64,000 nt of DNA from Candidatus Forterrea multitransposorum CG_2015-17_Forterrea_25_41 (GCA_009392915.1 CP045477.1:544001-608000), one strand, 5' to 3'. Shown: positions 28,311 through 63,858, counted from the stretch's first letter. The notes: generated by a model from the sequence alone, not told the origin. Made by a program: numbers and translations.

Positions 28311-29363
28311 ATGGACAAAATAATTGGAATTAAAGTAAATAAAGATAAAGCACAAGAAACAATTTCTAAAATAAAAGAAGAAAATAACTTTAATTCAAGA
28401 TATAAGATAATTAGAGAAAAAGAAAACATAATCATACCTATTAAAAAAATAACTTCAGACTTAAATAAAAATAACATAGTAGAAATTAATAATCCAGAAA
28501 AACAAAAAGAAATTGGACTTACATACAAAGAAATACTTAAAAAAGAAATAAATTCTAAATATATAGATAATCTCCCTTCTTCTTATGATATTGTAGGAGA
28601 CATTATAATAATTAACATAGAAGATAAAGAATTTCTTAAAGAATATAGTTCAAATCTAACTAATTCTCTTAAAAAAATACATCCCCACATAAAAGTAGTC
28701 TTAAACAAATCAAAAGAACATCATGGAACCTTTAGAACACAAGATTTAGAATGGATAGGTGGCGAAAATAGAAAAGAAACAATTATCCAAGAAAACGGAT
28801 GTTATTTAAAAACAGATGTTGAGAAAGTATTTTATTCAACAAGACTTGCAACAGAAAGAAAAAGAATAGCCTCTTTAGTCTTAGAAAATGAAACAATAGG
28901 AGTTTTCTTTGCAGGAGTAGGTCCTTTTTCAATAGCCATTGCAAAACTTGCAAAACCAAAAGAAATTATTTCCATTGAACTTAACCCTATTGGTGTTAAA
29001 TATATGGAAGAAAATATTTTAAAAAATCAAATGGAAAAAATAATAACACCAATAGAAGGTGATGTTAAAGAAATATCTAAAAGATATCCAAACTACTTTG
29101 ATAGAATACCAATGCCACTTCCAAAATCTGCAGAAAATTTTTTAGATGATGCAATTTTTTCAATAAAAGATAAAGGAATAATACACATTTATAATTTTGT
29201 ATCTAAAAATGAACCATTTAAAGAAATTGAAAAAATAATAAAAGAAAAAGAAAAAAAGAATAATTGCAAGATAGAAATAATATTTAAGAAAGTTATTAGA
29301 AGTTTTTCTCAAACCACTGTACAGATTGTAATGGATTTAAAAATATCTAAAGATCTTTCTTAA
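28311..29363 (+). CDS. Trm5/Tyw2-family tRNA methyltransferase (Met-10+ like, m1G37 type)
   Basis: Class I MTase core VGVFFAGVGPFSIAIAK (GxGxF). The acidic/NPPY-like motif is ISIELNP. The N-terminal D1-like region is typical of archaeal Trm5. Confidence 0.7.
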   Translation: MDKIIGIKVNKDKAQETISKIKEENNFNSRYKIIREKENIIIPIKKITSDLNKNNIVEINNPEKQKEIGLTYKEILKKEINSKYIDNLPSSYDIVGDIIIINIEDKEFLKEYSSNLTNSLKKIHPHIKVVLNKSKEHHGTFRTQDLEWIGGENRKETIIQENGCYLKTDVEKVFYSTRLATERKRIASLVLENETIGVFFAGVGPFSIAIAKLAKPKEIISIELNPIGVKYMEENILKNQMEKIITPIEGDVKEISKRYPNYFDRIPMPLPKSAENFLDDAIFSIKDKGIIHIYNFVSKNEPFKEIEKIIKEKEKKNNCKIEIIFKKVIRSFSQTTVQIVMDLKISKDLS

Positions 29364-31716
29364 GTTTAGGTTTCTTTTTAGAAGTTTTAGATTTAGAAAC
29401 TTCTTTTGGTTTTACTTCTTCTTTTTTCTTTGAAGGTTTAATTTTTGAAACTATTTTTTTAACACTTTTAATAGAATCACTTTTTTCATTTTCTAAAAGA
29501 AGTTTCTTTCTTTTCTCAAGTTCAAATATTTGTTTATCAATAATTTTCTTTTCAAAATCAACTGAAGCACTATCATAAATAGTTTTAGATTTAGAATCCT
29601 TTAAAACATCTTTATTTTTTATTCTTTCAAGCTCTAAAAGATATTTATCTCTCATTTCTTTATAAGTGAAAGGACTTATTTTTCCTTCAATTAATTTTTC
29701 ATCTAAATAACCTATTTGTTTAATTATTCCTTCCTTTGAATGATGTTTTTTAAATCTTTCAACTTCAAAGACAATTGTTAAAACCATTAAAAACAAAGCT
29801 GCAACAAATAAATAAAGATAAACATCTTTCTTCTCTTTTGAATAAATATAGATGTTTTGAGAAGAAGTTTCTTTTTCTTTACTTACATTTTCATCTTCAT
29901 CAGAAACAATAATTACAGAGCCTTGATTTGAAGAACTAATATCAATAACTAATGTTTCAAGATCTGTATTTAAATAATAATCAAGAACTATTTTTTCTGT
30001 TTCATAAAGATAATGTGCAAAATTAAGTATAGAGTTTGCAACATTTAATTGAGATTTTGCTTTTTCTTCATCTTTATTTTTATAGAAATCATGAGCATTT
30101 TTATAATAAATACCATGATCTAAGAAAGTTTTAGACCAAACATAATTTTCATTATTCATTGCACTTTGATTTCTTAAATCTTTAGTTAATTGATCATATT
30201 TAATATTAAAATCATTTAATGTAAAATTATTTTTACTGTCTTCTTGTGTTTTTATAACAGCTAAAGCAGTTGCTGAATCATAAAGTGAAGTTACATACCA
30301 TCCTCTTTGGTAATTAATCTTTGCAGCATTAAGTCTTCTTTTTAAATCTTCAGTATCTGCTATGTTTGGAGCAACTAAAATTAATTGATTTTCAACAGAT
30401 ATAATGCTTTCTTGTGCTTTTTCTTTAAAAAAGTTAGATTCTACAAACTTTAAATCATTATTTGTTGTAATTGATGCATCTAAAAAATCATTTGCAATTT
30501 CTGTCCATGCTAAAGCATAAGCATATTCTTGTATTTTTGAAAAATTATTTATAGTTTGCTTTTCTTTTAAAGATTCAACTTTATCTCTTGCCCAAGTAAT
30601 TCTTTGTCTTCCACCAACACACCATTCTAAATATTCAATTGAACAGTTGTTAGATCTGTTTTCTGTTAAAGTTATTTTTTCATCAAGTTCAGAAACTCTA
30701 AGATCAAAAATAATTGAAGAATCTGCTAAAATTGATGGATTTGTAATAATTTCTTCAACAGAGATTATATTAATATAAGCTAAAAAAGAATTATTTGCTG
30801 CTGAATAAAAATAATTATTTTCATAAAACTTTTTTGAATTTTCAACAAGTTCTTCAGAATAAGTAACTGTTGATAAAAGTGTATCTAGAACATCTAAATC
30901 TTTTATGTTAGAGGAAGATATTTTAGAATTAATTGAAGATAATTTTTCTTCAGTATTAAGAATATATTCTTCAGTTATTTTTTTTAAAGGTTCAACAGCT
31001 TTAGAATATTCAATTTTATTATAAACAAAATCATCTACTTTTTCTTCTTGAATAGAATTTACATCAATTGAAGAAACATCTTTAAAAGCATAATCTAGAA
31101 CATCATCAATAGTTGATACTTCAATAATCTTTAAACCCCATTCATTATAAGCATGCTCAATTAAATCAACTTGTTTAATTTCATCATCTTCATTAATCAC
31201 TTGAGATCTATTTCCTTGAGGTATGAAAAATAAATCAACACCTATTTCAGAAGCTTTTTTTGCTTTATAATAAATTCCACCAACATCTCCAATATATCCA
31301 TCAATTGAAATTGAACCAGTCATACTTACATTTTCAGGAACTGGAGAATCTTTAAACATTGAAATTATTAAGAGAGCCATTGCACCACCTGCAGATGGAC
31401 CATCTATAGTGTGTGCATTTGAAGTAATATCAACTGTAAAATCATACTCTTGCTTAATATCTTCTTTTATAACTGAATCTGCAACTGCAATTGCATTTTT
31501 AAAAGATTCTTGTGTTGAAGAACCTACTATTGATTCATCTATTGAAGAATATATTTTTCCAGTACCAGGTATAATTTTTACATTTAATTGTGCATCTTTT
31601 GCACTTGTTTCACCAGATACTGCGAAAATCTTCATATTAGCATCAGAAACTAATGCAAAAAGATTAGGCATTAAAAGTATTAAAAATAATAATATTGCAA
31701 TTGATTTAATTTTCAT
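29347..31716 (-). CDS. Secreted/membrane-anchored protein with a Lon-like S16 peptidase domain
   Basis: N-terminal signal peptide (MKIKSIAILLFLILLMPNLFAL). The Lon proteolytic domain IDGPSAGGAMALLIISMF...VSMTGSISIDGYIGDVGGIYYKAKKASEIGVDLFFIPQGN carries the catalytic Ser in DGPSAG and a downstream Lys. A large middle domain is followed by a C-terminal TM helix and a Lys-rich tail. 789 aa. Confidence 0.65.
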   Translation of the reverse strand: MKIKSIAILLFLILLMPNLFALVSDANMKIFAVSGETSAKDAQLNVKIIPGTGKIYSSIDESIVGSSTQESFKNAIAVADSVIKEDIKQEYDFTVDITSNAHTIDGPSAGGAMALLIISMFKDSPVPENVSMTGSISIDGYIGDVGGIYYKAKKASEIGVDLFFIPQGNRSQVINEDDEIKQVDLIEHAYNEWGLKIIEVSTIDDVLDYAFKDVSSIDVNSIQEEKVDDFVYNKIEYSKAVEPLKKITEEYILNTEEKLSSINSKISSSNIKDLDVLDTLLSTVTYSEELVENSKKFYENNYFYSAANNSFLAYINIISVEEIITNPSILADSSIIFDLRVSELDEKITLTENRSNNCSIEYLEWCVGGRQRITWARDKVESLKEKQTINNFSKIQEYAYALAWTEIANDFLDASITTNNDLKFVESNFFKEKAQESIISVENQLILVAPNIADTEDLKRRLNAAKINYQRGWYVTSLYDSATALAVIKTQEDSKNNFTLNDFNIKYDQLTKDLRNQSAMNNENYVWSKTFLDHGIYYKNAHDFYKNKDEEKAKSQLNVANSILNFAHYLYETEKIVLDYYLNTDLETLVIDISSSNQGSVIIVSDEDENVSKEKETSSQNIYIYSKEKKDVYLYLFVAALFLMVLTIVFEVERFKKHHSKEGIIKQIGYLDEKLIEGKISPFTYKEMRDKYLLELERIKNKDVLKDSKSKTIYDSASVDFEKKIIDKQIFELEKRKKLLLENEKSDSIKSVKKIVSKIKPSKKKEEVKPKEVSKSKTSKKKPKLKKDL

Positions 31717-31780
31717 GTTTTCTTCCTCTCAAATAAATAGTTTTCAATGTAATATATATTATATAATATTTATTTAAAGG

Positions 31781-32245
31781 TTACTTTTTCTTGTTTTTGA
31801 AAAGAAGATTAAATTTTTTAGTTGTAGAAAGAATATTTTTCCTTCCTTTTTTTTCAATTGAAATTAAATCTAGTTCTTTAAGTATTTTTAAGTCTTCAAA
31901 AGGTCTTTTCTTACTTATTTTTGATTGTTCAACAGGAGCATTTAAAGAAATAAAAGCTAAAGTTTTAAGTTCAGATTTTGAAAGAGTTGTTCCTGTTGCA
32001 AAAATATTAAAAGAATGGAATTCTGGTTTTACAACAATTTCTAATTTTTTATTATCTTTAACAATAGAAAGAGAAGTTTTTCTTTTATTATAATCATTGA
32101 TTAAATCATCTATCTGAATATCAATTATTTTTTTATCAATATTTGGAAATGAAGAATAAATTTTTGAAATTAAAGTTGATTTTGGAGATAGAAACAAAAT
32201 AGCTTCAATTGCTTGTTTTAAATAATCACTACTTGTTTGGTCCAT
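31781..32245 (-). CDS. scpB: ScpB-like segregation/condensation protein (winged helix)
   Basis: The N-terminus LKQAIEAILFLSPKSTLISKI resembles the ScpB EALLF motif. The size (154 aa) is compatible with archaeal ScpB. Confidence 0.4.
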   Translation of the reverse strand: MDQTSSDYLKQAIEAILFLSPKSTLISKIYSSFPNIDKKIIDIQIDDLINDYNKRKTSLSIVKDNKKLEIVVKPEFHSFNIFATGTTLSKSELKTLAFISLNAPVEQSKISKKRPFEDLKILKELDLISIEKKGRKNILSTTKKFNLLFKNKKK

Positions 32246-32266
32246 TATAAATCACATGTTAAAAAA

Positions 32267-33043
32267 TTATTCTCTTTTTGCAGTTAATGTTTCATTACGT
32301 GCAGGCATTATGTAAACAAAATAATCTCCCTCTGAAACTTTATCTCCAGTAGATTTTTCAATCCAATAAACAGTAGAGTCATCTTCTGATTGACTTAAAA
32401 AACTTATAGATCCGTGAACCACATCACCTGTTTGATATTCTCCAGCTCCATTAAGAATAGGTTGAGAGATTCCAGTATCATTTTCTAAAGTTAAAGTATA
32501 AGTTTCTGGCTCAGAAGATTCTGCTTGAAAAATTGCAGTAACTGATTTATTTTGAGTCATTGTAACGTCACAATTTATAGCAGCAGTATCACAATTTCCA
32601 GTCCATCCTTGAAAAGTATTTCCTTCAGATGCATTTGCATTTAAAGTAACTGAAGTTCCTGAAGAATAATTTTGAGAACAATCAGTTCCACAATTAATAC
32701 CTACTGGATTTGAAGTTACAGTTCCATTTCCAGAAACATTAACAGTTAATGTATAATTTTCAGGATCTGGTTCATCTGGTTCATCTGGTTCATCTGGTTC
32801 AGGATCTTCTCCTCCAGGATTAGGATTAACATTATCTATTTCTTCAACTTGAGAAGAATCATTTAAATCTTCAATAAACCCATCAACTGTTGAATCTATT
32901 CCTTCATTAATTTTGTCAGATTGACTTACTTTCTCATTTGAAAAATTAATAAAGGTTGTTGCAAGAACAATTGTACCTAAGACTAAAACACCAACTATAA
33001 TTACCATTTCTAAAGAAACTTGAGCTTTTTTATTTTGAATCAT
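32267..33043 (-). CDS. DUF361-type archaeal type IV pilin-like protein with Flg_new-like repeats
   Basis: Class III signal peptide MIQNKKA|QVSLEMVIIVGVLVLGTIVLATTF (Q at +1, E at +5). A (PDE)n linker. Repeats with GINCGT(D/N)CS...GTSVTL...G(N/H)xFxGW, as in Listeria-Bacteroides (Flg_new) repeats. Confidence 0.7.
   Translation of the reverse strand: MIQNKKAQVSLEMVIIVGVLVLGTIVLATTFINFSNEKVSQSDKINEGIDSTVDGFIEDLNDSSQVEEIDNVNPNPGGEDPEPDEPDEPDEPDPENYTLTVNVSGNGTVTSNPVGINCGTDCSQNYSSGTSVTLNANASEGNTFQGWTGNCDTAAINCDVTMTQNKSVTAIFQAESSEPETYTLTLENDTGISQPILNGAGEYQTGDVVHGSISFLSQSEDDSTVYWIEKSTGDKVSEGDYFVYIMPARNETLTAKRE
32764..32800. repeat. 9-bp tandem repeat (about 4 units, TCTGGTTCA) encoding a (PDE)n linker in the pilin-like gene
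   Basis: ggatctggttcatctggttcatctggttcatctggttcagg is seen directly. It encodes EPDEPDEPDEPDP on the minus strand. Confidence 0.8.
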
Positions 33044-33072
33044 ATTTATTCTTATTTTATATTTTTATAATA

Positions 33073-35190
33073 TTATTCTAAGCCACCATCAGTAATAGTC
33101 CAATTATAATTATTAATTAATATATTTTTTGCATCAACTGCAGAACTATCATAATTAACTGCTGTTGCACCTAATGTAACATTACTTTTTAAATTAGTTA
33201 AATTTGACCATCTAATTAAAATATTAGAATAATTTACAGTAGATAATGCATAATCAAACATATGAGCCATATCAGTTACATTTGAAACATCCCATGCACT
33301 AATATCTTGATCAAAACAAATATCAGAAATACTAAAGAAACATTGAAACATTCTGTTCATATTTGTAACATTTGAAACATCCCACATACTTATATTTTGA
33401 TTAAATGAATAATTATTATAAAACATAGAAGACATATCAGTTACATTTGAAACATCCCAATTATTCAATGGTTGATTAAATCTAGTACATCTAAACATTG
33501 CAGCCATATTAGTTACATTTGAAACATCCCAATTATTTATAGAAGTATTAGTCCATGAAAATACACCATTATTTGGAGGACTACTTACACTACAATTTTG
33601 ATAACCACTAAAAGTTCCTGCTAAATTTGTAATTCCGTTTAAATCAGGAACATCAGTTGCAGTTACAACTAAATTTGTAGCTCCAGAGAAATAATATCCA
33701 CTATTTCCAAATTTTAAATTACCCCATTGACTAATTTCAGTTAATTTTAATTTATCTCCAGAATTATTAAACCTAAAACCTTCAATAAAACCTGTTATGA
33801 TTACATCATATATCCCAGAACTTGAATATGTGTGAGTTTTATCAGGATCACTATAACTTGTAACCTCTGATGTAGTTCCATCTCCCCAATAAACTTTAAA
33901 ATTATAATTATTACTATAAAGAGAAGCAGAATCTAAAGGTAATGTAATTTGATTTGCATTTGAAGAACCAGTACTAATTTTTGTAGTATCCCATTTAGAT
34001 ATAAATGCATCTGAAGTAGGTATAAAATTTGCAGTTAAATTCACATTACTTGAAGGCATTGTATAACTAAATGAAGGATCTGTACTTACTACAGTACCAT
34101 TTTGATCAATCCAATTTACATAAGAAAATTCAGCAATAGAAGAGACAGATATATTTGCAACATCTCCAGGATTATAATTTCCTGCACCATTTAAACTAAT
34201 ATTTACTGAATCTGGATTTTCAATTAAATTTAAATTATAAGCAACAGGCAAACTAAAAGTTGCAGTTACATTTTTAACTTCAGTCATAGAAACAGAACAA
34301 CTAATTTGAGGTCCAGAACAATCCCCAGACCATCCTTCAAAAACATATCCTGAAACTGGAGTTGCATTTAATTGAACAGATTGTTGATCAGGAAAAGTTG
34401 CAGAACAGTTTGTTTGAGATTCTAAACAATTAATTCCAGAAGGATAAGTTTCAACAGTTCCTCCAATTGTTTTAGTTAAATTTAAAGTATAACTGTTTGG
34501 AAGATTAAAAGTTGCAGTTACATTTCTTGCTTGAGTCATGGAAACTGTACAAGTAAGATTAGTTCCTGAACAAGCACCTGACCATCCACCAAAACTATGA
34601 CCAGTAACAGGATTTGCAGTTAAAGTAACTGAAGTGCCTGAAGAATAATTTTCAGAACAATTAGTTCCACAATTAATACCAGAAGGATTTGAAGTCACAG
34701 TTCCATTTCCCGCACCACTTAAAGATACATTTAAAGTATAAGTTGATGGAGCAGTTGATGAAAAATTTGCAGTTAAAGAAGTATTTGAATTTAAATTAAA
34801 AGTATATGGATTTGTGGAAAGTGAACCTGTTGGAGTTGTCCAATTATTAAAAGTATAACCTGAAAGAGCAGTTGCAGTTGCAGTAACTGAAGTTCCACAA
34901 CTAAAAGTTCCAGCTCCTGAAACAGTACCACCTGCTGGAGGGTTTGAAGATAAAGTTAAAACACAATTACTACCAACACCTGAAATTGGTTCATAATCTT
35001 CAGGATTTGTTAAATCTTTAATAAAACCATCAATTGTTGAATTTGTAGCAGCATCAATTTCTCCTGCTTGATCTACTTTTTCATTTGTAAATCCAATTAA
35101 AATAGTTGCTAAAATAACAGCACCTAAAATCAAAACACCAATAATAATTATCATCTCTAAAGAGACTTGAGCTTTTTTACTTTTATTCAT
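33073..35190 (-). CDS. Large DUF361-type pilin-like adhesin with Flg_new-like repeats and BspA/DUF285-like C-terminal repeats
   Basis: The class III signal is MNKSKKA|QVSLEMIIIIGVL. The ORF-track start at 35265 adds a 25-aa Lys-rich extension that is probably untranslated. Four repeats have the form ...NPSGINCGTNCSENYSSGTSVTLTANPVTGHSFGGWSG... C-terminal 25-aa repeats are NWDVSNVT(N/D)M(A/S)xMF. Many NxT/S sequons. Confidence 0.7.
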   Translation of the reverse strand: MNKSKKAQVSLEMIIIIGVLILGAVILATILIGFTNEKVDQAGEIDAATNSTIDGFIKDLTNPEDYEPISGVGSNCVLTLSSNPPAGGTVSGAGTFSCGTSVTATATALSGYTFNNWTTPTGSLSTNPYTFNLNSNTSLTANFSSTAPSTYTLNVSLSGAGNGTVTSNPSGINCGTNCSENYSSGTSVTLTANPVTGHSFGGWSGACSGTNLTCTVSMTQARNVTATFNLPNSYTLNLTKTIGGTVETYPSGINCLESQTNCSATFPDQQSVQLNATPVSGYVFEGWSGDCSGPQISCSVSMTEVKNVTATFSLPVAYNLNLIENPDSVNISLNGAGNYNPGDVANISVSSIAEFSYVNWIDQNGTVVSTDPSFSYTMPSSNVNLTANFIPTSDAFISKWDTTKISTGSSNANQITLPLDSASLYSNNYNFKVYWGDGTTSEVTSYSDPDKTHTYSSSGIYDVIITGFIEGFRFNNSGDKLKLTEISQWGNLKFGNSGYYFSGATNLVVTATDVPDLNGITNLAGTFSGYQNCSVSSPPNNGVFSWTNTSINNWDVSNVTNMAAMFRCTRFNQPLNNWDVSNVTDMSSMFYNNYSFNQNISMWDVSNVTNMNRMFQCFFSISDICFDQDISAWDVSNVTDMAHMFDYALSTVNYSNILIRWSNLTNLKSNVTLGATAVNYDSSAVDAKNILINNYNWTITDGGLE
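33271..33540. repeat. Four copies of a roughly 75-bp periodic repeat (core agttacatttgaaacatccca) within the large adhesin gene
   Basis: Near-identical 25-30 nt cores at about 33271, 33364, 33436 and 33509. They encode the repeated NWDVSNVTxMxxMF units. Confidence 0.75.
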
Positions 35191-35279
35191 ATCTTTATCC
35201 ACTTTTTTTACTTTTTTAGATTTTATTATTTTTTTAGATTTAATTTTTTTAACTTCTTTTTTCATAAATATCTTTTCTC

Positions 35280-35663
35280 TTAATTAAAATTTGCTGTAAT
35301 ACCAGTATTAAAATTTAAATCAAAATAGAATATTTCAGTTTTGCTCATAATAGCTCCAGAAGAATCTTTCCAGTTTAAGAAACTATGACCTGTAGCAGGA
35401 ACAGCTTCTACTCTTACTTGAGTTCCACAAGCAAAACTACCATCTCCTTTAACAGTGCCAGCATCTTGAGGATTTACTGAAATTACTAGATTACAAATAA
35501 AGTTATCAACAATTTCATCTGTTTGTTTATTAATTGCATTAGATTGATCTGCTTTTGAAGAAGACATATTAATAACAATTGTTGCAAGAATAATTGTCCC
35601 TAAAACTAAAACACCAACGATAATCATCATTTCTAAAGAAACTTGAGCTTTTTTATTTATCAT
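35280..35663 (-). CDS. DUF361-type type IV pilin-like protein (short, with one Flg_new-like unit)
   Basis: MINKKA|QVSLEMMIIVGVLVLGTIILATIV, plus ...GTVKGDGSFACGTQVRVEAVPATGHSFLNWKD. Confidence 0.7.
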   Translation of the reverse strand: MINKKAQVSLEMMIIVGVLVLGTIILATIVINMSSSKADQSNAINKQTDEIVDNFICNLVISVNPQDAGTVKGDGSFACGTQVRVEAVPATGHSFLNWKDSSGAIMSKTEIFYFDLNFNTGITANFN

Positions 35664-35778
35664 AAAATATAATCCTTTAATTATAAATATAATATAAATA
35701 TAAATACATAATATATATAAATGTATTTGTTATAGAAGAATAAGTAAATAGTTTTAAAGATAAATAATTTTAAAGATC

Positions 35779-36444
35779 TTAAATAACTTTTATAAAAATC
35801 TCAGAAAAGAAATCATCTTGCCAAACATTTATCTTCTGATCTTGATGAAGAAATAAAAGAGGAATAAATAAATTATTAACAATATCAAAATTATCAATAT
35901 TTTTTGAAAAAAGATTTTTAAAAGTTAAACAACCTTCCTTATCTGCTTCTTTTTTAATTGAAGAAAAAAGAGAATCAATTCTTAAGTTAATATCTTCAGT
36001 TGATTTTGGAACAAAAAATTCAACTTCTGCTTTTTCTTTAATCATTTTTTCAATGTTTTTTTTAGTTGGTTTATTCATTATAGTATCTATTGCTTCAATT
36101 AAATCATCTAAAGAAACTTGACTTTCTTTATTTCTAATTGGATTTTCTAAGTTTAAAGCATTAAGTAAAATATCATCTTCTTTAGGTATTATTAAATCAT
36201 CTTCAGGATCAATACTTGAAAGCTTTAAAGTATATGTTTTAATTTTAAGAAGAATACTTGCAGCTAGAAGTGCATTTGCAGGAATCATTAAATTTTCTTC
36301 TTTAAACTCTATTATTTTTTTTAAATAGAGATCTGTAAGAGAAATAATATCAATATTCCAAATATCAAAATCATTTGATTTTACAAGATCAAACAAAAGT
36401 AGTTTCCAGTTTGGTTGATCTATAATGTTTACTAATTCTTCCAT
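35779..36444 (-). CDS. scpA: ScpA-like kleisin (segregation and condensation protein A)
   Basis: The N-terminus WKLLLFDLVKSNDFDIWNIDIISLTDLYLKKIIEF...IPANALLAASILLKIKT matches the ScpA N-terminal pattern LDLLL.LI....DI.DI.I..IT.QYL.Y......L..A...LVMAA.L..IKS. Confidence 0.5.
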   Translation of the reverse strand: MEELVNIIDQPNWKLLLFDLVKSNDFDIWNIDIISLTDLYLKKIIEFKEENLMIPANALLAASILLKIKTYTLKLSSIDPEDDLIIPKEDDILLNALNLENPIRNKESQVSLDDLIEAIDTIMNKPTKKNIEKMIKEKAEVEFFVPKSTEDINLRIDSLFSSIKKEADKEGCLTFKNLFSKNIDNFDIVNNLFIPLLFLHQDQKINVWQDDFFSEIFIKVI

Positions 36445-36496
36445 ATATAAAAGATATCTTCAAAAAAGAATAAAAAGAGAAAGGTTTTTTAGTTTT

Positions 36497-37180
36497 TTAA
36501 TCTTCTAAAACCTTTGCATTAAAATTGTTTGCTTCAATATCACATAATTTAATTTTTTTACTTTGGCCTTCAATATATAAAACAGTATCTTTTTCAAAGT
36601 AAATTGTTACAGAATCACAAACTAATCTAAACCTTACAGATTTAGATTTTAGTAATTCATCAAAAATTAAATCTATATTTTCTGAAAAAACTATAATATC
36701 TATTCCTTGTTTTTTACCTTTAATTTTTGTTGAAATTTCATTTAAATCAATAGTTCCAACAACATTAAACTTTAAAATAAACTCTTTAATATCAAATGAA
36801 GAAATTAATTTTTGAATATATTCTTTAGCTTTTATAGTGTCTGAAAAGATATATGTTCTATAAGCTCTATATTTTTCAAAAAACTTATCAGCTTCACCCA
36901 TTTCTTTATAAAAACTATCCATTTCTTCTTTAATATTTGAAACTGTTGAATTCATTTTCTTAAAAAGAGAAATTAATTCTCTCTTATTAATTTCAGATTC
37001 TATATCTTTTTCTAAATATTCATTCTTTTTAACAATATCATTAATTTCTTTATAGTCATTTATAAGACTATTTAAAATATCATGAAGTGGATTGTAAAGC
37101 TCTAAAACCTTATTTGTTCTATATAGATTTTTATTTAAAGACTCAAAAGACTTTTTAACTTTATTATTAATATCAACCAT
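36497..37180 (-). CDS. Hypothetical coiled-coil protein
   Basis: 227 aa, helical and charged. Confidence 0.35.
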   Translation of the reverse strand: MVDINNKVKKSFESLNKNLYRTNKVLELYNPLHDILNSLINDYKEINDIVKKNEYLEKDIESEINKRELISLFKKMNSTVSNIKEEMDSFYKEMGEADKFFEKYRAYRTYIFSDTIKAKEYIQKLISSFDIKEFILKFNVVGTIDLNEISTKIKGKKQGIDIIVFSENIDLIFDELLKSKSVRFRLVCDSVTIYFEKDTVLYIEGQSKKIKLCDIEANNFNAKVLED

Positions 37181-37277
37181 TTTTTAAAACCCCTTTTTTA
37201 AATTTGAAAAAATTCCCCTATAATAATATGATAAATGGTAATATTTAATAAAGCTATCTTTTTATGTAGATAACAGA

Positions 37278-38198
37278 TTATTTTTCAGACTTTAAATCTA
37301 AAAACATATGATATGATGCAATTGCTCCTTGAGAAGTAGAAGTTACAATTTGCTTAAGTTCTGTATGGTTAGTACAATCTCCAGCTGCAAATACACCTTC
37401 AATATTAGTTCTTTGAGCTTTATCTACAATAATTTCACCATGATCATCAAGTTTTATACTTAATTTATCTAAAAGCTCTGTATTTGGAACATGACCTATC
37501 TCAATAAATATTCCATCTAATACCATTTCATTATCATCTTTTAATTTAATTTTTTCTAATTTTTCAGAACCAATTAATTCTTTTATTTCAGAATTATAAA
37601 CAACTTCTACATTTTCTTGTTTAAATAAAGAATCAAGCCACATAGGTTCTGCTCTTAATTGAGAGCCTCTATATATTAAATAAACTTTCTTTGCAATTTC
37701 AGAAAGTAATAAAGCAGCAGTTACAGCAGCATCAGAACCACCAATAACACCTACAATTTTATCTTTATAAAAAGCTCCATCACAGGTAGCACAATAATGA
37801 ACCCCTTTACCTAAATATTTTTCTTCATTTTCAATATTTAAAGTTCTTTTTTTCTTTCCTATTGCAAGTAAAACTTTTCTTGCTTTTACAGTTTCTTGAT
37901 CAGTATTTACTATGAAAAAATCATCTTGTTTTTTAATATCCATAACTTTTTCATATTTTATAGGAATTTCTAAATTATTAACTTGTTCTACCATTTTTGA
38001 AATTAAATCCATACCAGTTACTTCTAAAAAACCAGGATAATTCCAAATAGTGTGAGCAGTAGAAGTTACTCCTCCAAAAGAATCTGTAAACATTATAGTT
38101 GACATTTTATATCTTCCTGAATAAAGTGCACTTGAAAGTGCTGCAACACCACCACCAACAATAACTAAATCATAAATATTTGAATTATTTTCATTCAT
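37278..38198 (-). CDS. trxB: Thioredoxin reductase
   Basis: FAD-binding GxGxxA (VIVGGGVAALSSA), redox-active CATCDG, second Rossmann motif GGSDAAVTAAL. Confidence 0.85.
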   Translation of the reverse strand: MNENNSNIYDLVIVGGGVAALSSALYSGRYKMSTIMFTDSFGGVTSTAHTIWNYPGFLEVTGMDLISKMVEQVNNLEIPIKYEKVMDIKKQDDFFIVNTDQETVKARKVLLAIGKKKRTLNIENEEKYLGKGVHYCATCDGAFYKDKIVGVIGGSDAAVTAALLLSEIAKKVYLIYRGSQLRAEPMWLDSLFKQENVEVVYNSEIKELIGSEKLEKIKLKDDNEMVLDGIFIEIGHVPNTELLDKLSIKLDDHGEIIVDKAQRTNIEGVFAAGDCTNHTELKQIVTSTSQGAIASYHMFLDLKSEK

Positions 38199-58436: not shown

Positions 58437-59918
58437 ATGGCTGAAAAGTTTGATCCATTTTCATCAGGAAGCACAAATTATTATAATCCAACTTCTGAAA
58501 AGAAAAAAAGTAATGGACTTGTAACATTTATACTTGTGATAATATTAATTGGACTTGGAATTTATTATGGTTCAAACTATTTATTTCTAAATAAAGTAGA
58601 TGTAACTTTTAATATTAAGAACACAGAAGGAGAAACTATTCCTGCAAACATACAAATTTCAAAAAGTCCTATGTTTACAGATACAGTTCTTAATTTACAA
58701 AATGGAACTACAGGAGAATTGAAGAAAGGTAGCTATTATTATCAGATACAAGCAACAGGATATAAGTTATATAAATCAAGTACAGAAAAAGAATTTAAAG
58801 AAACATTTAATGAAGACTTTGAACTTGAAAAAAATATTAGTCTAAAATTAGAAAAAATTACTTTTCCAGAAAAAGTTTTTAAAAACCAAATGGCAATTCT
58901 TTCAATTGAAGTTATAAATACTTCAGAAAAAGAAATATATACTCCATCAAATATCATTGTAGAAGGTGATATTGAAGAATGGAATTTTGAATATGTTGAT
59001 AATTATCAAGAAGTAATATCTGTTGAAGATATAGTTATTCCACCAAAACAAAGAATGAATATAAATTTAAGATATATTGTGGACGATACTGGAGATAAAG
59101 AAAATGATATTAAGGTAAGAATTAAATATAAATCAGATTCTAAAAAAACTAGTTTTGAAATCATAGAAATTCCAGAAATCACAATAAAAGCAGATATTGA
59201 AAAAACAATTGAAAGTGGAAGTAATAGTAATTTTACAATAAATATTGGAAATTCTAAGAATAGCAGTCCTATTTCAGACTTAAAAATAGCACTTGAAATT
59301 GAAAGTGAAGAAAATGAAACTGTAGAAGAATGGTTTAATTATGATAAAGGGAACATTGTAATCCCTGCTAAAAGAAATACAACTTTAAGTCTTTCAGTTT
59401 CAATACCTCAATATGCAAAAAGTGATACACTTAATGGAAATTTAATTTTTTCAAGTTCTGCATTTGATGAAAATAAAGTTATTCCAATAAAAATTACAAT
59501 TGAAGAACCAAGCATTGATTTTGATACAAAATTAAGTACAAGTGAAACAGAAATTAATTATGATGTAAATAATAACACTACTGATAAAAAATATATTACT
59601 TTAACTTTAGATAATAAAAGTTCAATTGATATAGAAATTGTAAACATATCTATTCTTAATTTAGATCCTGACAAAAAAGATTGTAATAACTACATATATA
59701 TTTCAGAAAACTCACTTCCAGATAAAAGAGTTATTAAAAACACAAAACCAGAAATACCAATTACAATATTTGCAAAAGATCCTTCATTAATTGGAGATCC
59801 AATAAATAACACCAGGATTTGTGGAATAAATGTAGAATACAAACATCCTTTTAGAATAGAAGAAACAATTAATATTTCTAAAAATATTATAATAAATATT
59901 GAAGAAAAAACATCATAA
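58437..59918 (+). CDS. N-terminally anchored extracellular protein (hypothetical surface protein)
   Basis: Single TM after KKKSNG (LVTFILVIILIGLGIYY), beta-rich ectodomain with NxT/S sequons. It is contiguous with the upstream gene (stop/start TAAATG). Confidence 0.4.
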   Translation: MAEKFDPFSSGSTNYYNPTSEKKKSNGLVTFILVIILIGLGIYYGSNYLFLNKVDVTFNIKNTEGETIPANIQISKSPMFTDTVLNLQNGTTGELKKGSYYYQIQATGYKLYKSSTEKEFKETFNEDFELEKNISLKLEKITFPEKVFKNQMAILSIEVINTSEKEIYTPSNIIVEGDIEEWNFEYVDNYQEVISVEDIVIPPKQRMNINLRYIVDDTGDKENDIKVRIKYKSDSKKTSFEIIEIPEITIKADIEKTIESGSNSNFTINIGNSKNSSPISDLKIALEIESEENETVEEWFNYDKGNIVIPAKRNTTLSLSVSIPQYAKSDTLNGNLIFSSSAFDENKVIPIKITIEEPSIDFDTKLSTSETEINYDVNNNTTDKKYITLTLDNKSSIDIEIVNISILNLDPDKKDCNNYIYISENSLPDKRVIKNTKPEIPITIFAKDPSLIGDPINNTRICGINVEYKHPFRIEETINISKNIIINIEEKTS

Positions 59919-59938
59919 ATTAAAAGAGTTAATATAGT

Positions 59939-61771
59939 ATGGAACACATAGATTGGATTGTATCATTTGTAATTTTTATATTTGTAATACTTGCAATAAT
60001 TACAGCAATACCAAGATTTCTTCCAGACAATTTAAAACAAGAAGATATATATACTTCAAAAATAGTTTATTCTCAATTAACTGAAAATATTGATAAATAT
60101 ACAATATATTCAGATAATAATTATCAAGATATATTTTTTTTAGAAGACATTAACAAAGGAAGAGCAATTTCTAATTTTATAATTGATGAAAATATTCTAT
60201 TTTTAGATTATATTAAAAAATCAAATTTTTATTATTATGATGCAAATAGTTCTTTTGAAAAACCAAAAACTATTATTTTTAAAGAAAAAATAATTGATGA
60301 AAATAGTTTAGTTAATTTTCAATTAGATCAAGGACAAATAATTAGCTTTAATGGAGAAGCATATGCCTATCAAGAAACTACATTAAAAAGTATAGAAAAT
60401 TATTCTAATGTTTATTTTGAGTATGTTGTAGAACCACAAGACATGAATGTTTATTTTAATTATGCAGATGTTAATAATTACTCACTTTGTTCAATAGATC
60501 AAAATCAGCTTAAATTATATGATCAAAATAGCTCTGGAAGTTATTTAGTAGATTTTGTAGATGTTAATTTTGATGAAGATCAGTATTTTATAACATTAAA
60601 AGTAAATACAAACTATACTGGAGAAGTTAGTTGTGTTATTGAGGATTATATAGCTGAAAATAATACACAAAGTTCTATTAATAGTGGGCAAATAATTTTA
60701 AAAAATATTAATGAACAATTTATAGATAGCTTTGAAATATACAAGAATAATTATCTTGAAATTAACTCAAATACAATCAATACAAATTATTTTGATCTAG
60801 AAATTACTGGAAACCAAATTGATGCAAATATTTTTGAAAATAGAAATCTTCTTGGAAATATAAAATTAAGTTTTGAAAATAATTTAGATTATAGCTTAAT
60901 TGAAAACAATAATCCAGGAATAATAAAAGATAGTTTATCAAAACAAAAATTAGTTATTTTTCCAAACACAAATCAATTAATAACAGTTATTGAAAATGAA
61001 GATGTTAATTTTGAAGTATCACAAGGACTTGAAATTAATAATTATGATTATGAAATAGAATATTTAACAGATTATTATACTTGGATTAAAATGGATGTTC
61101 TTGCAAATTCTCAAAAAACAGTTTATTTAAATAAAATTCAAGGATATCAACCAGAGAATGATTTTTCAAAAGTTTATGATAGCCCAACTCATCCAAGCAC
61201 AACAGTTACAAACCAAGGAAGTGGATTATTTAAAATTGATATAGATAATACTGGAGGATTAGAACTTTCAGATTATGAAATTAGAATAGATAATAATATT
61301 TTAAGTCTATCATCTACAACTGAAAGTTTATTGATTACAGATTCTAATTTTACAAATGTTAATAAAATAACACTTAAAAACAAAACAGAAAATAAATATG
61401 TAATTATTGAATTTTTAGATAAAGATAGAAATCTTAAAGAATGTACAGTAAATATTATAGATGATGGTTTTAATATAAATTGTACAAGCAAAACATATTT
61501 AAAAATAAAAATTACAGACACAACAGAACAAGAAAAAAGTAAATATTTAAAGAGTTCTGAAAAAATAATTACTAAAGAAAAAATAGATGATGTTAATCTA
61601 GATGTAATTGATAACTATAATTACTTTATTAAACTATATAATAATAAAGAAAACGTAGAAATTGGAAACTATGGATATTCAGGAGATTTTAAAATTCTCG
61701 AAAAAATATCTAAATATTTAAATGAAAAAGGACAAGAAGAAATAGTTAAAGTTTTAATAAAACCTAACTAA
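59939..61771 (+). CDS. N-terminally anchored large extracellular protein (hypothetical surface protein)
   Basis: TM at residues 5-25, 610 aa, N/S/T/Y-rich ectodomain. Confidence 0.4.
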   Translation: MEHIDWIVSFVIFIFVILAIITAIPRFLPDNLKQEDIYTSKIVYSQLTENIDKYTIYSDNNYQDIFFLEDINKGRAISNFIIDENILFLDYIKKSNFYYYDANSSFEKPKTIIFKEKIIDENSLVNFQLDQGQIISFNGEAYAYQETTLKSIENYSNVYFEYVVEPQDMNVYFNYADVNNYSLCSIDQNQLKLYDQNSSGSYLVDFVDVNFDEDQYFITLKVNTNYTGEVSCVIEDYIAENNTQSSINSGQIILKNINEQFIDSFEIYKNNYLEINSNTINTNYFDLEITGNQIDANIFENRNLLGNIKLSFENNLDYSLIENNNPGIIKDSLSKQKLVIFPNTNQLITVIENEDVNFEVSQGLEINNYDYEIEYLTDYYTWIKMDVLANSQKTVYLNKIQGYQPENDFSKVYDSPTHPSTTVTNQGSGLFKIDIDNTGGLELSDYEIRIDNNILSLSSTTESLLITDSNFTNVNKITLKNKTENKYVIIEFLDKDRNLKECTVNIIDDGFNINCTSKTYLKIKITDTTEQEKSKYLKSSEKIITKEKIDDVNLDVIDNYNYFIKLYNNKENVEIGNYGYSGDFKILEKISKYLNEKGQEEIVKVLIKPN

Positions 61772-61932
61772 ATCATTAATTTAAATATTAAAACCACAAC
61801 TACAAAAGCAATAGATAAACCAACTACTAATTCTGGTGAAAGCTTATAACCACCTAAACTTTCATTAAACTTCATAATACCAATAGCACTACTTGGTCCT
61901 TGACTATTACTCTTCATTTGCTTTAATTTCAT
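61768..61932 (-). CDS. secG: Preprotein translocase subunit Sec61beta/SecG (archaeal), 54 aa (not in the ORF track)
   Basis: The reverse complement translates to MKLKQMKSNSQGPSSAIGIMKFNESLGGYKLSPELVVGLSIAFVVVVLIFKLMI. The SAGLIRYxDE...K.xPE.V.G...AFV pattern of archaeal Sec-beta is present, with a single C-terminal TM. Confidence 0.6.
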   Translation of the reverse strand: MKLKQMKSNSQGPSSAIGIMKFNESLGGYKLSPELVVGLSIAFVVVVLIFKLMI

Positions 61933-62040
61933 AAATATTACACCTCTAATAATAAATATATATATAGAAAACTATTAAATAACTTACTCTTATATAATTT
62001 ATGTAAGAACAGTTAAAAAAAATTAAAAAAAGGATAATAA

Positions 62041-63018
62041 ATGATTAATAAAAAAATGATTTGGAAAACTGCAGTAGTTATAATAATGATAATTATTCTA
62101 CTATATCTTTTAGTATGGGCAGGAACAGTTAGATGTAAATCTATTCCTGGAATGTGTTCTATTTACTGGGGAACCCAAACATTAATTACTGGAAAACAAC
62201 AACCAAGCATATTAATTGTTTATAATCCATCAGATATAGAAGGTCTTGGAAATCCTTATCTTCTAGAGAAAACAATAAGAGATAATAAAATAATTGGAAT
62301 GAATGTAAGACTTGAAAATATAAATTATTTAAGTGAAGAAAAACTAAAAAATGAAGCAATGGTAATAGTTACAAAATCTAGAAAAATATCTACACCAAAG
62401 CTTGAAATGTTTATTAATTATGTATCAACTGGTGGTAGACTTATTTGGGTCGGAGATGCTGGAATAGAAAAAGAAACAAACTTAGATGTTCTTGCAACAA
62501 AAGGAGATATTGAAGGTTCATTTGATTCTAATATTGTAAGTGGCTGGGCAAGACTTGATTCTGAAAACTATATTTTAAGATTTGATAATTTCTTAGGAGT
62601 TAATTATCTTAATAATTATTGCCAAGTAAAAGATTGTCAAGATAAAATATATAAAGTTGCTAATGGTATTGAACTTAATTATAAAAAACCAATTGCTAAT
62701 AATGGAGTACTTATACCAAGTTCAGAACATCGTATGGTCTATGGACTTAGAAGTTATCTTGAAGTAAAAGATGATTTTGCAATTGTACAAACACTAAAAC
62801 CAATGACAACTCCTTTAAAATTAGATTTTGGATCAACACTTTTTGATTCAGAGAAAGTATCTTATGGAAATGAAGAAGGAGTATTCCCTTTAATAATATT
62901 AAGTAATTCAAATAAAGTTGCATACTATGCAATGCCTCCAGAATATTTAATTGAAGATGATGATAAAGAGAAATATTATTCAATAATTGAAAATATGATA
63001 TATGGTATGGTTAAATGA
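62041..63018 (+). CDS. N-terminally anchored extracellular protein (hypothetical)
   Basis: TM at residues 8-28. 325 aa. Confidence 0.4.
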   Translation: MINKKMIWKTAVVIIMIIILLYLLVWAGTVRCKSIPGMCSIYWGTQTLITGKQQPSILIVYNPSDIEGLGNPYLLEKTIRDNKIIGMNVRLENINYLSEEKLKNEAMVIVTKSRKISTPKLEMFINYVSTGGRLIWVGDAGIEKETNLDVLATKGDIEGSFDSNIVSGWARLDSENYILRFDNFLGVNYLNNYCQVKDCQDKIYKVANGIELNYKKPIANNGVLIPSSEHRMVYGLRSYLEVKDDFAIVQTLKPMTTPLKLDFGSTLFDSEKVSYGNEEGVFPLIILSNSNKVAYYAMPPEYLIEDDDKEKYYSIIENMIYGMVK

Positions 63019-63024
63019 TAATTT

Positions 63025-63396
63025 ATGATTAAATCTGTAGAAGCTGTTATTGCTGTAATGATTCTTTTTTTATTCATAATAACATTATTTTCAAGCTATA
63101 CAAAAACAGAAACTAGAGAAAACTTAATGATTGAAAAAAGTTCAGAAATATTTTTAATCAATGCACAAAATAAAGAATTTAGAGATTATATACAAGAAAA
63201 TAAAGGTCAAATAATATATAATGAATTATATGGTTATATAGATAGTAATTATTCAATAAAAATATGTGATTTTTTAGAAGAAAATGAAAACTGTGCTGAT
63301 TTTGGAGATACAGTTCCTGATAAAAAAAGTTTAAGCTCTTTTAATTATTATTTTTATGATATTAATAAAACTTTAAATATAATAGTGTGGTCTTAA
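63025..63396 (+). CDS. Small pilin-like protein with a possible class III signal peptide
   Basis: MIKS|VEAVIAVMILFLFIITLF has K at -2, S at -1 and a hydrophobic stretch. 123 aa. Confidence 0.4.
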   Translation: MIKSVEAVIAVMILFLFIITLFSSYTKTETRENLMIEKSSEIFLINAQNKEFRDYIQENKGQIIYNELYGYIDSNYSIKICDFLEENENCADFGDTVPDKKSLSSFNYYFYDINKTLNIIVWS

Positions 63397-63399
63397 AAA

Positions 63400-63858
63400 A
63401 TGAAAGAAAAAGGATTTACATACATAATAATTGTTGTTTTTATTATGATATTTGTAACTATGCTTTTTTTAATCTCAAAAAACATAAACTATTCAAATAA
63501 AATAAAACATTTAGTATCAAACTATAAAACTGAAATCAACTATCTTTCAGAAAATAACTTAATAGATGTAAATAGTTTAGATGAGTTTAATATAAATTTT
63601 AAAGAATTTATAAAATCAAATAACTATAATAGTAAAGCTTGTGGAATATATTTTGATGGTAATAAATACATTCTAAGTAATTATCTTGATGCAAATTATA
63701 CTCTGATACAAGAAAATCAAACTATTGAAATATTAGCAGAAAGTGTTTCAGAAGATATCATATTTGGAAATTGTGAAATGGATATTTCTTTAGAAAATTC
63801 ACTTTCTTTTTATATAGAAATTTATAATGATTCTGAGAAAAGTATATATAAACAATAA
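63400..63858 (+). CDS. Pilin-like protein with a class III (prepilin-type) signal peptide
   Basis: MKEKG|FTYIIIVVFIMIFVTMLF has KG at -2/-1 then a hydrophobic helix, the archaeal PibD/FlaK-type substrate pattern. Confidence 0.45.
   Translation: MKEKGFTYIIIVVFIMIFVTMLFLISKNINYSNKIKHLVSNYKTEINYLSENNLIDVNSLDEFNINFKEFIKSNNYNSKACGIYFDGNKYILSNYLDANYTLIQENQTIEILAESVSEDIIFGNCEMDISLENSLSFYIEIYNDSEKSIYKQ

Follow-up and report, generated by a model that had tools for sequence, protein, structure and literature searches.

Three putative modular pilin-like adhesins, two of them with strain-variable C-terminal modules, encoded between scpA and scpB in a DPANN archaeon

Pilins onto which additional functional modules are grafted are known from bacteria, where they were named "modular pilins" by Raynaud and colleagues and comprise 264 architectures (PMC8179133), and archaeal proteins that combine a class III signal with adhesin or binding domains were noted in a preprint on type IV filament systems (10.64898/2026.04.22.720090). 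In the present study, we analyzed a stretch of 64,000 nucleotides (nt) of Candidatus Forterrea multitransposorum CG_2015-17_Forterrea_25_41 (CP045477.1, positions 544001 to 608000; hereafter the window), in which a cassette of three consecutive genes, here called pilins 1, 2 and 3, lies between scpA and scpB. The organism belongs to the Iainarchaeota (Diapherotrites) among the DPANN archaea, and its genome is well below 1 Mb in size. We consider it probable that the three genes encode modular type-IV-pilin-like adhesins, which would be processed at a KKA|Q site (the bar marks the predicted cleavage) and held by their helices in, or at the tip of, a filament assembled with a nearby ATPase. Class III signal pilin-like adhesins and modular pilins are both known already, and the window proteins are present in public databases under names that refer to their C-terminal domains only. 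What is new here is the recognition of a pilin module on these proteins, a reconstruction of how the scpAB pair was split, and the swapping of tip modules between strains, which is the most informative of the new results.

Two described systems are close to this locus in several respects. The Epd pilins of Methanococcus maripaludis (DUF361/PF04021), which are processed by EppA (PMC3875500), have the same short basic leader, Gln at position +1, Glu at position +5 and hydrophobic helix as the window proteins; in both cases small members (about 70 amino acids (aa)) coexist with much larger ones, and pilin genes stand alone, away from the assembly locus. The two differ in that position -1 is Gly in the Epd pilins and Ala here, that PF04021 scores remain below threshold here, and that the genes lie inside scpAB. 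In addition, recognizable adhesin modules, namely InlB B-repeats and a DUF285 leucine-rich repeat (LRR) module, are present here, and no EppA-like peptidase was found in the ~84 kb examined for pilus machinery (the window plus 10 kb on either side). DPANN archaea were reported to have "system 1" type machinery, as for the Epd pilins (10.64898/2026.04.22.720090). Bacterial modular pilins, such as PilB (vWA) and PilC (lectin) of Streptococcus sanguinis (PMC8179133), resemble the window proteins in having a small pilin module, a linker and grafted modules, in being presumed to sit at the filament tip and mediate adhesion, and in combining one N-terminal module with many architectures. They carry, however, the IPR012902 N-methylation motif (G|FTLxE), whereas the motif here, A|QVSLEM, is that of an archaeal (DPANN) family with Gln at +1, and the G|F/MxxxE motif of IPR012902 is absent from all three window pilins. 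Judged by their sequences, the window proteins are thus modular-pilin-like in design and not members of the bacterial IPR012902 class. A further difference is that strains here differ in their set of modules while the locus stays the same.

The string KKAQVSLEM followed by ~25 hydrophobic residues heads each of the three open reading frames (ORFs) between scpA and scpB, just as an earlier reading made from the sequence alone (the sequence-only reading) had claimed, and it occurs nowhere else in the six frames of the window. A profile of the N-terminal module scored 85-92 bits on these ORFs versus 8.6 bits on the next best ORF of the window, and the 5' ends of the three genes form a 183-nt DNA repeat family with 75-77% identity. 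Motif, profile and DNA repeat together indicate that the three genes are paralogues and not chance matches. The leaders (MINKKA|QVSLE, MNKSKKA|QVSLE and MIQNKKA|QVSLE) are short and basic and end in Ala at -1, which is followed by Gln at +1 and Glu at +5; alignments of the module show no variation at K, Q, S and E. EppA substrates are described as having a leader of 5-13 aa that ends in a small residue (G/A/S), Gln at +1 and Glu at +5 (PMC3875500). The DUF361-type assignment made in the sequence-only reading is supported by this leader signature, which is found in all three proteins. The family model, Pfam Class_IIIsignal (formerly DUF361, PF04021), gave genuine but sub-threshold hits of 19.6, 15.9 and 17.6 bits (E 9e-4 to 0.013) for pilins 1 to 3, its gathering score being 23.7. 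Other proteins with the same N-terminal module do reach PF04021: three of them (P0084, P0085 and P0089; our labels for proteins begin with P and those for loci with L) have precomputed hits, and JGI names one member UPF0333. An AlphaFold2 model of pilin 1, with a mean predicted local distance difference test score (pLDDT) of 88.8 and a pLDDT of 93 over residues 11-30, consists of a helix (residues 4-53) and a beta domain (residues 56-126), and as modeled the protein would have the lollipop outline of type IV pilins.

Pilin 2 departs from the other two at its start. Its motif begins at residue 30, after a 25-aa lysine-rich extension, and M26 (window position 35190) is an alternative start. The frame of the extension stays open, with diverged Lys-rich sequence, in all orthologues examined (P0092, P0115, P0172, L084 and L004), and the DNA upstream of the leader contains an 18-nt x 2.4 tandem repeat and A6-A7 runs; in L084, the extension reaches up to 44 codons. 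This region may be an unusually long basic class III pre-leader, an untranslated stretch, or a slippage-prone regulatory stretch.

The N-terminal module belongs to a larger family. An exhaustive profile search over 1.84 billion protein representatives returned 244 representatives at E<=1e-3 and 68 at E<=1e-10; a word-indexed search with the same profile had listed just 8 proteins, and those of the window were not among them. The match sits at the extreme N-terminus in nearly all 244 representatives, the lengths of which range from 43 to 2123 aa. Among 141 newly listed representatives, 136 have an xGQxSxE motif, 36 are at most 130 aa long and 77 exceed 300 aa. The members of 130 aa or less resemble major Epd/Flp-type pilins, and relatives encode family members of 79-89 aa that have no extra domain. 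When 73 of the 77 long members were scanned for domains, CHB_HEX_C_1/Fn3_assoc (17), GLUG (16) and Flg_new_2 (7) were the most frequent, with RCC1 propellers (3), Lcl_C (3), DUF285 (1), Fib_succ_major (1) and FGE-sulfatase (1) found more rarely; Big_7 and M26-peptidase N-domains were also present, and PF04021 was matched by five of the 73 at E<=1e-4. The family represents an archaeal counterpart of the bacterial modular pilins, with an N-terminal module of its own and a broad repertoire of grafted domains.

The C-terminal parts of the three window proteins consist largely of adhesin-type repeats. By using a self-built repeat hidden Markov model (HMM), we mapped seven InlB B-repeats, one in pilin 1, four in pilin 2 (82-101 bits per copy) and two in pilin 3 (aa 105-175 and 182-258, with 95 and 87 bits). 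Pfam Flg_new_2 (PF18998, cut-off 23.6) gave 49.0, 147.6 (over four stretches) and 50.5 bits for pilins 1, 2 and 3, respectively. Multiple repeats of this type had been predicted for two of the proteins, which is correct for pilins 2 and 3, but pilin 1 has one copy as well. A Foldseek comparison with the InlB B-repeat structure 2y5p gave a TM score of 0.59 normalized to the target, with a non-significant E of 1.3. As also predicted, the largest protein, pilin 2, carries BspA/DUF285-like WDVSNVTxM repeats: its C-terminus contains four of them and scored 175.3 bits with Pfam DUF285 (PF03382, cut-off 25) and 52.4 bits, in four stretches, with the NCBIfam PARCEL repeat (TIGR02167, cut-off 30). The underlying DNA has a 72-nt x 2.3 tandem repeat at 33368-33537. 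In NCBI, the identical pilin 2 protein is listed as "DUF285 domain-containing protein"; a fragment with 92% identity appears there as "BspA family leucine-rich repeat surface protein". Like the BspA-like/DUF285 (PARCEL) proteins of Mollicutes, Listeria, Bacteroidota and others, pilin 2 has ~24-aa repeats with a WDVSNVTxM core, which form a bona fide 230-aa module, and the number of repeats varies between its alleles (4 versus ~11). In bacteria, however, this module is carried on a lipoprotein or a Sec signal, whereas here it follows four B-repeats behind a pilin-like N-terminus. Ahead of this module, pilin 2 has a weakly PKD-like beta-sandwich (PKD_4, E=0.006). N-x-S/T sequons occur at 4.4 and 3.9 per 100 aa in pilins 2 and 3, 6-7 times more densely than the window median of 0.66, as would be expected for exposed archaeal glycoproteins; Ser and Thr make up 24% of pilin 2.

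An assembly apparatus that could serve these proteins is partly in evidence. A T2SSE ATPase of 675 aa is encoded on the same contig (L083 12264-14291), beginning 304 nt past the end of the window and ~28 kb from the cassette. It scored 110 bits against a cut-off of 24.9 and contains the Walker A motif GPTAGGKTT as well as RQRPDYLIIGEVRG; a Walker B/Asp-box motif was also read in its sequence. No pilus ATPase, platform protein or peptidase was found within the 64-kb window, and six-frame scans of the window and of 81 loci for the T2SSE Walker A and A24 GxGD motifs yielded no convincing hit. The sequence-only reading had looked to the rest of the genome for the prepilin peptidase and the pilus ATPase and platform genes; of these, the ATPase was found on the same contig, but neither a prepilin peptidase nor a platform protein was found within ~84 kb.

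The neighborhood of the ATPase has several features of its own. The last 5.5 kb of the window (plus strand; Table 1) encodes proteins of 493, 610 and 325 aa, each with an N-terminal transmembrane (TM) helix, and this type-IV-filament-like locus runs on beyond the window (L083 6397-14291) with a coiled-coil protein followed by the T2SSE ATPase. Two small pilin-like proteins, of 123 aa ("MIKS|VEAVIAV..") and 152 aa ("MKEKG|FTYIIIVV.."), are encoded at the same locus. A 324-aa protein with seven TM helices near the ATPase has no Pfam match.

Several results weigh against a pilus made with these proteins. As described above, the Class_IIIsignal hits on all three window proteins fall below the gathering score. 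PDB sequence searches with pilin 2 and the N-terminal profile returned only non-significant matches (geopilin, Pyrobaculum pilin and archaeal flagellin, E 0.24-1, with a best E of 0.24), and PDB had no Foldseek match to the pilin 1 model at E<=0.001; with no significant pilin match by sequence or by fold, the three proteins can be called pilins only putatively at the level of the fold. The window lacks a short major pilin of this family. According to the N-terminal profile, the pilin-like genes beside the ATPase belong to other families than the scp-linked pilins, so that handling of the latter by this machinery would be a supposition. No Peptidase_A24 or GxGD-type multi-TM protein was found in the ~84 kb, and inspection of all multi-TM ORFs of the window revealed no prepilin peptidase. 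Likewise, there was no match to a T2SSF platform protein in the window or the 10 kb on each side; the platform protein may be divergent or encoded elsewhere. The 10 kb before the window start contain a Cas1 gene but no pilus genes.

The main alternative is that the proteins are displayed or anchored without a pilus, with the class-III-like N-terminus acting as an uncleaved signal-anchor or building a bindosome-like layer that never becomes a filament. Class III signals on non-pilin binding proteins are widespread in archaea (10.64898/2026.04.22.720090), and this alternative would suit a fold search without a pilin match, the lack of a short same-family major pilin, a peptidase and a platform near the cassette, and the bulky 630-aa C-terminal part of pilin 2, which is hard to fit into a filament body. 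The Sulfolobus class III signal sugar-binding proteins of the bindosome likewise join a class III signal to a large non-pilin binding domain and rely on a type-IV-filament-like assembly system; they are solute-binding and linked to ABC transporters, whereas the window proteins have adhesin-type repeats and no adjacent transporter. The strict conservation of Gln at +1 and Glu at +5 throughout the family is, however, a signature of processing and assembly rather than of a plain anchor, and the domainless 79-89-aa members in relatives are typical of major Epd/Flp-like pilins. The T2SSE ATPase is present, and bacterial modular pilins with bulky modules are incorporated into pilus tips (PMC8179133). 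On balance, we regard display without a pilus as unlikely.

If the three proteins are instead pilus components, which we favor, they would be inserted into the membrane, and their leaders would then be cleaved by a prepilin peptidase before Gln at +1. The N-terminal helices (~25 hydrophobic residues plus an amphipathic segment) would polymerize into a type IV filament or be added at its tip, by machinery to which the T2SSE ATPase ~28 kb from the cassette would belong. Outside the cell, the C-terminal modules would be free to bind a surface, for which the host-cell envelope or a polysaccharide is most plausible. In view of the small genome, the binding partner may be a host cell; polymers or other surfaces may serve instead. 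Pilin 1, which is conserved between strains, is the best candidate for the repeating or adaptor subunit, and pilins 2 and 3 would act as variable binding subunits.

This variability was seen when strains were compared. In other assemblies of the species, the gene order is unchanged and the flanking genes have the same lengths, but the pilin 2 alleles differ. The window allele has four DUF285 repeats, and the P0092 allele has three B-repeats and ~11 DUF285 repeats; P0115 has a Fib_succ_major domain and further repeats in place of DUF285, and P0105 has a long B-repeat array with a C-terminus that looks Lcl_C/DUF1566-like by eye, without a score. P0090 is also listed among the allelic tips at this locus. 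The pilin 2 orthologue of the more distant L084 (88% ScpA identity) contains B-repeats only. In sliding comparisons with L116 and L117, nucleotide identity was 92-100% in the flanks and over pilin 1, but dropped to 52-77% in the 3' part of pilin 2, from ~34400 (L116) or ~33800 (L117) down to 33000, and to 78-84% in the 3' half of pilin 3. The pilin 1 proteins of L116 and L117 are 97-98% identical to that of the window, with 3 and 5 differences in 127 residues as counted on the alignment, and the acidic (EPD)n spacer of pilin 3 varies in length between strains. This pattern of identity indicates that the stalk parts are conserved and the outer modules exchanged or diversified. With near-identical flanks around different C-terminal modules, the cassette appears to be a recombination hot spot, and a conserved stalk with a variable tip suggests genes under pressure from a changing binding partner, of which such a pattern is typical. 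No sign of variation by a diversity-generating retroelement or an invertible element was seen in a repeat search of 31000-37500, a reverse transcriptase not having been searched for; the repeats and inverted repeats in that interval are paralogous coding repeats and weak AT-rich matches only.

We tentatively extend this observation to a hypervariable "tip-swapping" cassette, in which a conserved stalk (pilin 1 and the N-terminal thirds of pilins 2 and 3) might be combined with interchangeable modules that are recombined between co-existing strains and set the host or surface specificity of a DPANN episymbiont. The modules concerned would be DUF285 LRRs with a variable number of repeats, Fib_succ_major or Lcl_C lectin-like domains, and long B-repeat arrays. 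As part of the same tentative proposal, the cassette might be an archaeal analogue of cassette switching in phage tail fibres or bacterial adhesins.

The genes that flank the cassette belong to the ScpA and ScpB families, as had been called at the level of motifs only. The first scored 41.0 bits with Pfam SMC_ScpA (PF02616, cut-off 24.6) and covered profile positions 1-231 of 232, and the second scored 66.3 bits with Pfam SMC_ScpB (PF04079, cut-off 27.4) and covered positions 2-150 of 160. The NCBIfam ScpA equivalog models matched ScpA below their cut-offs only, and TIGR00281 gave 51.7 bits on ScpB, under its equivalog cut-off of 89.2; such shortfalls are usual for divergent DPANN sequences. 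We collected 81 ScpA homologues, several of which were named ScpA by their sources. The extent of the block, 31781-36444, and its gene content were likewise given exactly in the sequence-only reading: it is filled by five co-oriented ORFs on the minus strand, which encode ScpA, the three pilin-like paralogues and ScpB, and the distance from scpA to scpB is 3,533 nt.

To our comparison of 81 genome loci, 32 metagenome loci and four more loci reached through individual proteins we owe the history of this arrangement. It had also been suggested earlier that the block sits in a usually adjacent pair as though inserted there. Among 48 DPANN loci holding both genes, drawn from 80 genome loci and the window's own contig, scpB lies within 66 nt after scpA, or overlaps it, in 42, so that a usually adjacent pair is indeed split in the window; in Woesearchaeota/Pacearchaeota-type loci, scpB was not detectable next to scpA. 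In a neighbor-joining tree of ScpA, two sister clades surround the window organism and separate two arrangements. In clade A, with ScpA 61-100% identical to that of the window, one to three pilin genes lie between scpA and scpB at every locus with enough sequence (the window, L002, L003, L004, L006, L084-L087, L092 and L116-L118). In clade B, with ScpA 51-58% identical, scpB adjoins scpA at all loci but L009, which has two unrelated genes in between. A pilin cassette is located immediately upstream of scpA in the clade-B loci L005, L009, L010, L082, L089 and L110, and no pilin cassette is present at scpAB in L008/L090, L011/L091, L012 and L093. Downstream, both clades have the same order of scpB and the genes for a Lon-protease-domain protein, Trm5 and AliA. 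Because the cassette lies upstream of scpA in the sister clade, the split is better described as relocation of an existing neighbor than as foreign insertion, and the earlier suggestion is right in part. These arrangements point to a simplest history in which the cassette would have stood beside scpA in the common ancestor and a single local rearrangement at the base of clade A would have placed it inside scpAB.

We find it hardly credible that the block is a recent foreign insertion, such as an island or a mobile element that was acquired horizontally and landed in scpAB. This alternative draws on the GC content of the cassette (0.275-0.28), which is slightly above that of most of the window (0.18-0.25), and on the C-terminal modules, the closest relatives of which outside Iainarchaeota are bacterial or belong to Promethearchaeota. 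The GC rise is, however, in the direction expected from a composition rich in Gly, Ala, Thr and Ser (of which Ser plus Thr was measured), and only the C-terminal modules look exchanged, whereas the N-terminal modules are specific to their lineages, in line with the ScpA phylogeny. The same type of cassette adjoins scpA in the sister clade, and throughout the clade with 61-100% identical ScpA it occupies the same site. A mobile element was considered and rejected, since there is no tRNA, integrase or terminal repeat at the edges of the block and the synteny of relatives opposes it.

The persistence of the linkage between pilins and scpA/scpB in two sister clades, despite the change in position, raises another alternative, namely that functional coupling to SMC-ScpAB or the cell cycle, for example in daughter-cell attachment or in DNA uptake through the filament, keeps the cassette at scpAB. 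Short spacers within the block (14-29 nt, except for the 115 nt after scpA) and a gap of 64 nt between scpB and the following gene, lonC, suggest co-transcription from scpA to scpB and lonC. At four to five clade-B loci, however, pilins are missing from scpAB, and in genomes as compact as those of DPANN archaea even unrelated genes frequently share an orientation. The presence of unrelated genes in the same slot, PIN-like and antitoxin-like in L092 and L085 and others in L009 and L016, indicates that the slot is permissive for insertion. In archaea generally, scpA and scpB are often apart and their positions vary widely, and in vitro, no binding between ScpA and ScpB was seen for any of the six archaeal pairs tested (PMC7055376); the split is thus not functionally striking. 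We consider such coupling very improbable; apart from probable co-transcription, no tie of the cassette's position to chromosome segregation is in evidence.

Further observations concern the genes in and around this slot. In L092 (9141-10659) and L085 (5215-6212), with 62% ScpA identity, the slot encodes, in this order, a short pilin of 81 aa, an unknown protein of 198 aa, and proteins of 175 and 115 aa that, by eye only and without a scored match, resemble a PIN-like toxin-antitoxin pair. Across Iainarchaeota, a KaiC/RecA-like ATPase (236-241 aa; PF06745 in L082) is encoded divergently upstream of scpA in clade-B and outgroup loci, for example at 7530-8240 in L005, 9184-9894 in L008, 9182-9907 in L014 and 9029-9742 in L016, and the clade-B pilin cassette occupies the divergent spacer between this gene and scpA; no homologue of it was detectable in the window. 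In addition, the DNA for an internal ScpA motif, NKESQVSLDDL (36107-36145), is 79% identical over 39 nt to the DNA of the pilin start NKKAQVSLEM (compared sites 33009-33047, 35156-35194 and 35632-35670). The likeness, a microhomology right beside the rearranged site, is probably a coincidence.

Table 1. Features of the scpA-scpB region and of the candidate assembly locus, in window coordinates.
Feature	Position	Strand	Remarks
scpA	35779..36444	-	221 aa; kleisin subunit of SMC complex
scpA-pilin 1 spacer	35664..35778	-	115 nt; AT-rich, with TATA-box-like runs, as read from the sequence
Pilin 1	35280..35663	-	127 aa; leader MINKKA|Q, hydrophobic helix, linker, one InlB B-repeat (aa 57-127)
Pilin 2 (putative modular pilin-adhesin)	33073..35265	-	730-aa ORF; 705 aa if the start is M26
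Pilin 2, lysine-rich upstream extension	35191..35265	-	25 codons
Pilin 2, leader MNKSKKA|QVSLEM and hydrophobic helix	35086..35190	-	88.7 bits to the N-terminal module profile
Pilin 2, four InlB B-repeats	34015..34965	-	aa 101-171, 186-256, 267-340, 343-417
Pilin 2, PKD-like beta-sandwich and DUF285/BspA-type module	33076..33996	-	aa ~424-500 and aa ~500-730; strain-variable tip
Pilin 3	32267..33043	-	258 aa; leader MIQNKKA|Q, helix, acidic PD/PE spacer, two B-repeats
Pilin 3, (EPD)n-encoding tandem repeat	32765..32801	-	perfect 9-nt x 4.1
scpB	31781..32245	-	154 aa
lonC (Lon-protease-domain protein, secreted or membrane-bound)	29347..31716	-	789 aa
Candidate assembly locus	58437..63858	+	proteins with N-terminal TM helix and two small pilin-like proteins

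The window as a whole is AT-rich (GC 0.18-0.29), and the cassette is surrounded by genes with routine housekeeping functions (TFB, thioredoxin reductase, aminoacyl-tRNA synthetases and Trm5); proteins identical to those of the window carry the NCBI label "Candidatus ainarchaeum sp.". The spacer upstream of pilin 1 is a possible internal archaeal promoter. A scan for sigma-70 promoters and terminators found 39 sites versus 44 expected, with a sigma-70 model that is unsuited to an archaeon. Directly upstream of scpA, a 227-aa protein without family match is encoded at 36497-37180 on the minus strand; it is also found in the clade-A loci L004, L006, L116 and L117, which reach upstream, and was not seen at that position in clade B. 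The lonC product has a signal-peptide-like N-terminus, a Lon S16 protease domain at aa 64-211 (Lon_C, 62.4 bits) without an AAA+ module, a long unassigned region, a C-terminal TM helix and a lysine-rich tail, and lonC adjoins scpB downstream in the examined loci of both clades wherever the sequence reaches that far.

Two observations lie farther from the cassette. At 45123-47805 on the plus strand, a gene for a GH3-family adenylating enzyme (545 aa, three GH3 domains) overlaps by 8 nt the following gene for a DUF2817 protein (350 aa); we know of no such pair from archaea. The Cas1 gene (PF01867, 393 aa; L119 7701-8882, same species) lies ~1.1 kb upstream of window position 1 and has unannotated genes on both sides. 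As the window yielded no CRISPR-like array, the gene may belong to a casposon or to a degenerate or remote CRISPR locus.

The split of scpA and scpB is in itself a minor change of synteny without evident functional meaning. Of greater interest is what the cassette may do. Episymbiotic Saccharibacteria, which belong to the candidate phyla radiation (CPR), are ultra-small host-dependent cells that use type IV pili for host association (PMC9894109), a functional parallel to the host-attachment pilus suggested in the sequence-only reading; those pili are bacterial and experimentally supported, whereas for the present archaeon neither a host nor pili have been observed. How DPANN archaea recognize and hold their partners is largely unknown, and very few of them have been cultured; the locus provides a concrete candidate for an attachment device, and the differences between strains suggest that it evolves fast. 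If the variable tips set partner specificity, their alleles could be used as markers of symbiont-host pairing in metagenomes and as baits for the identification of hosts.

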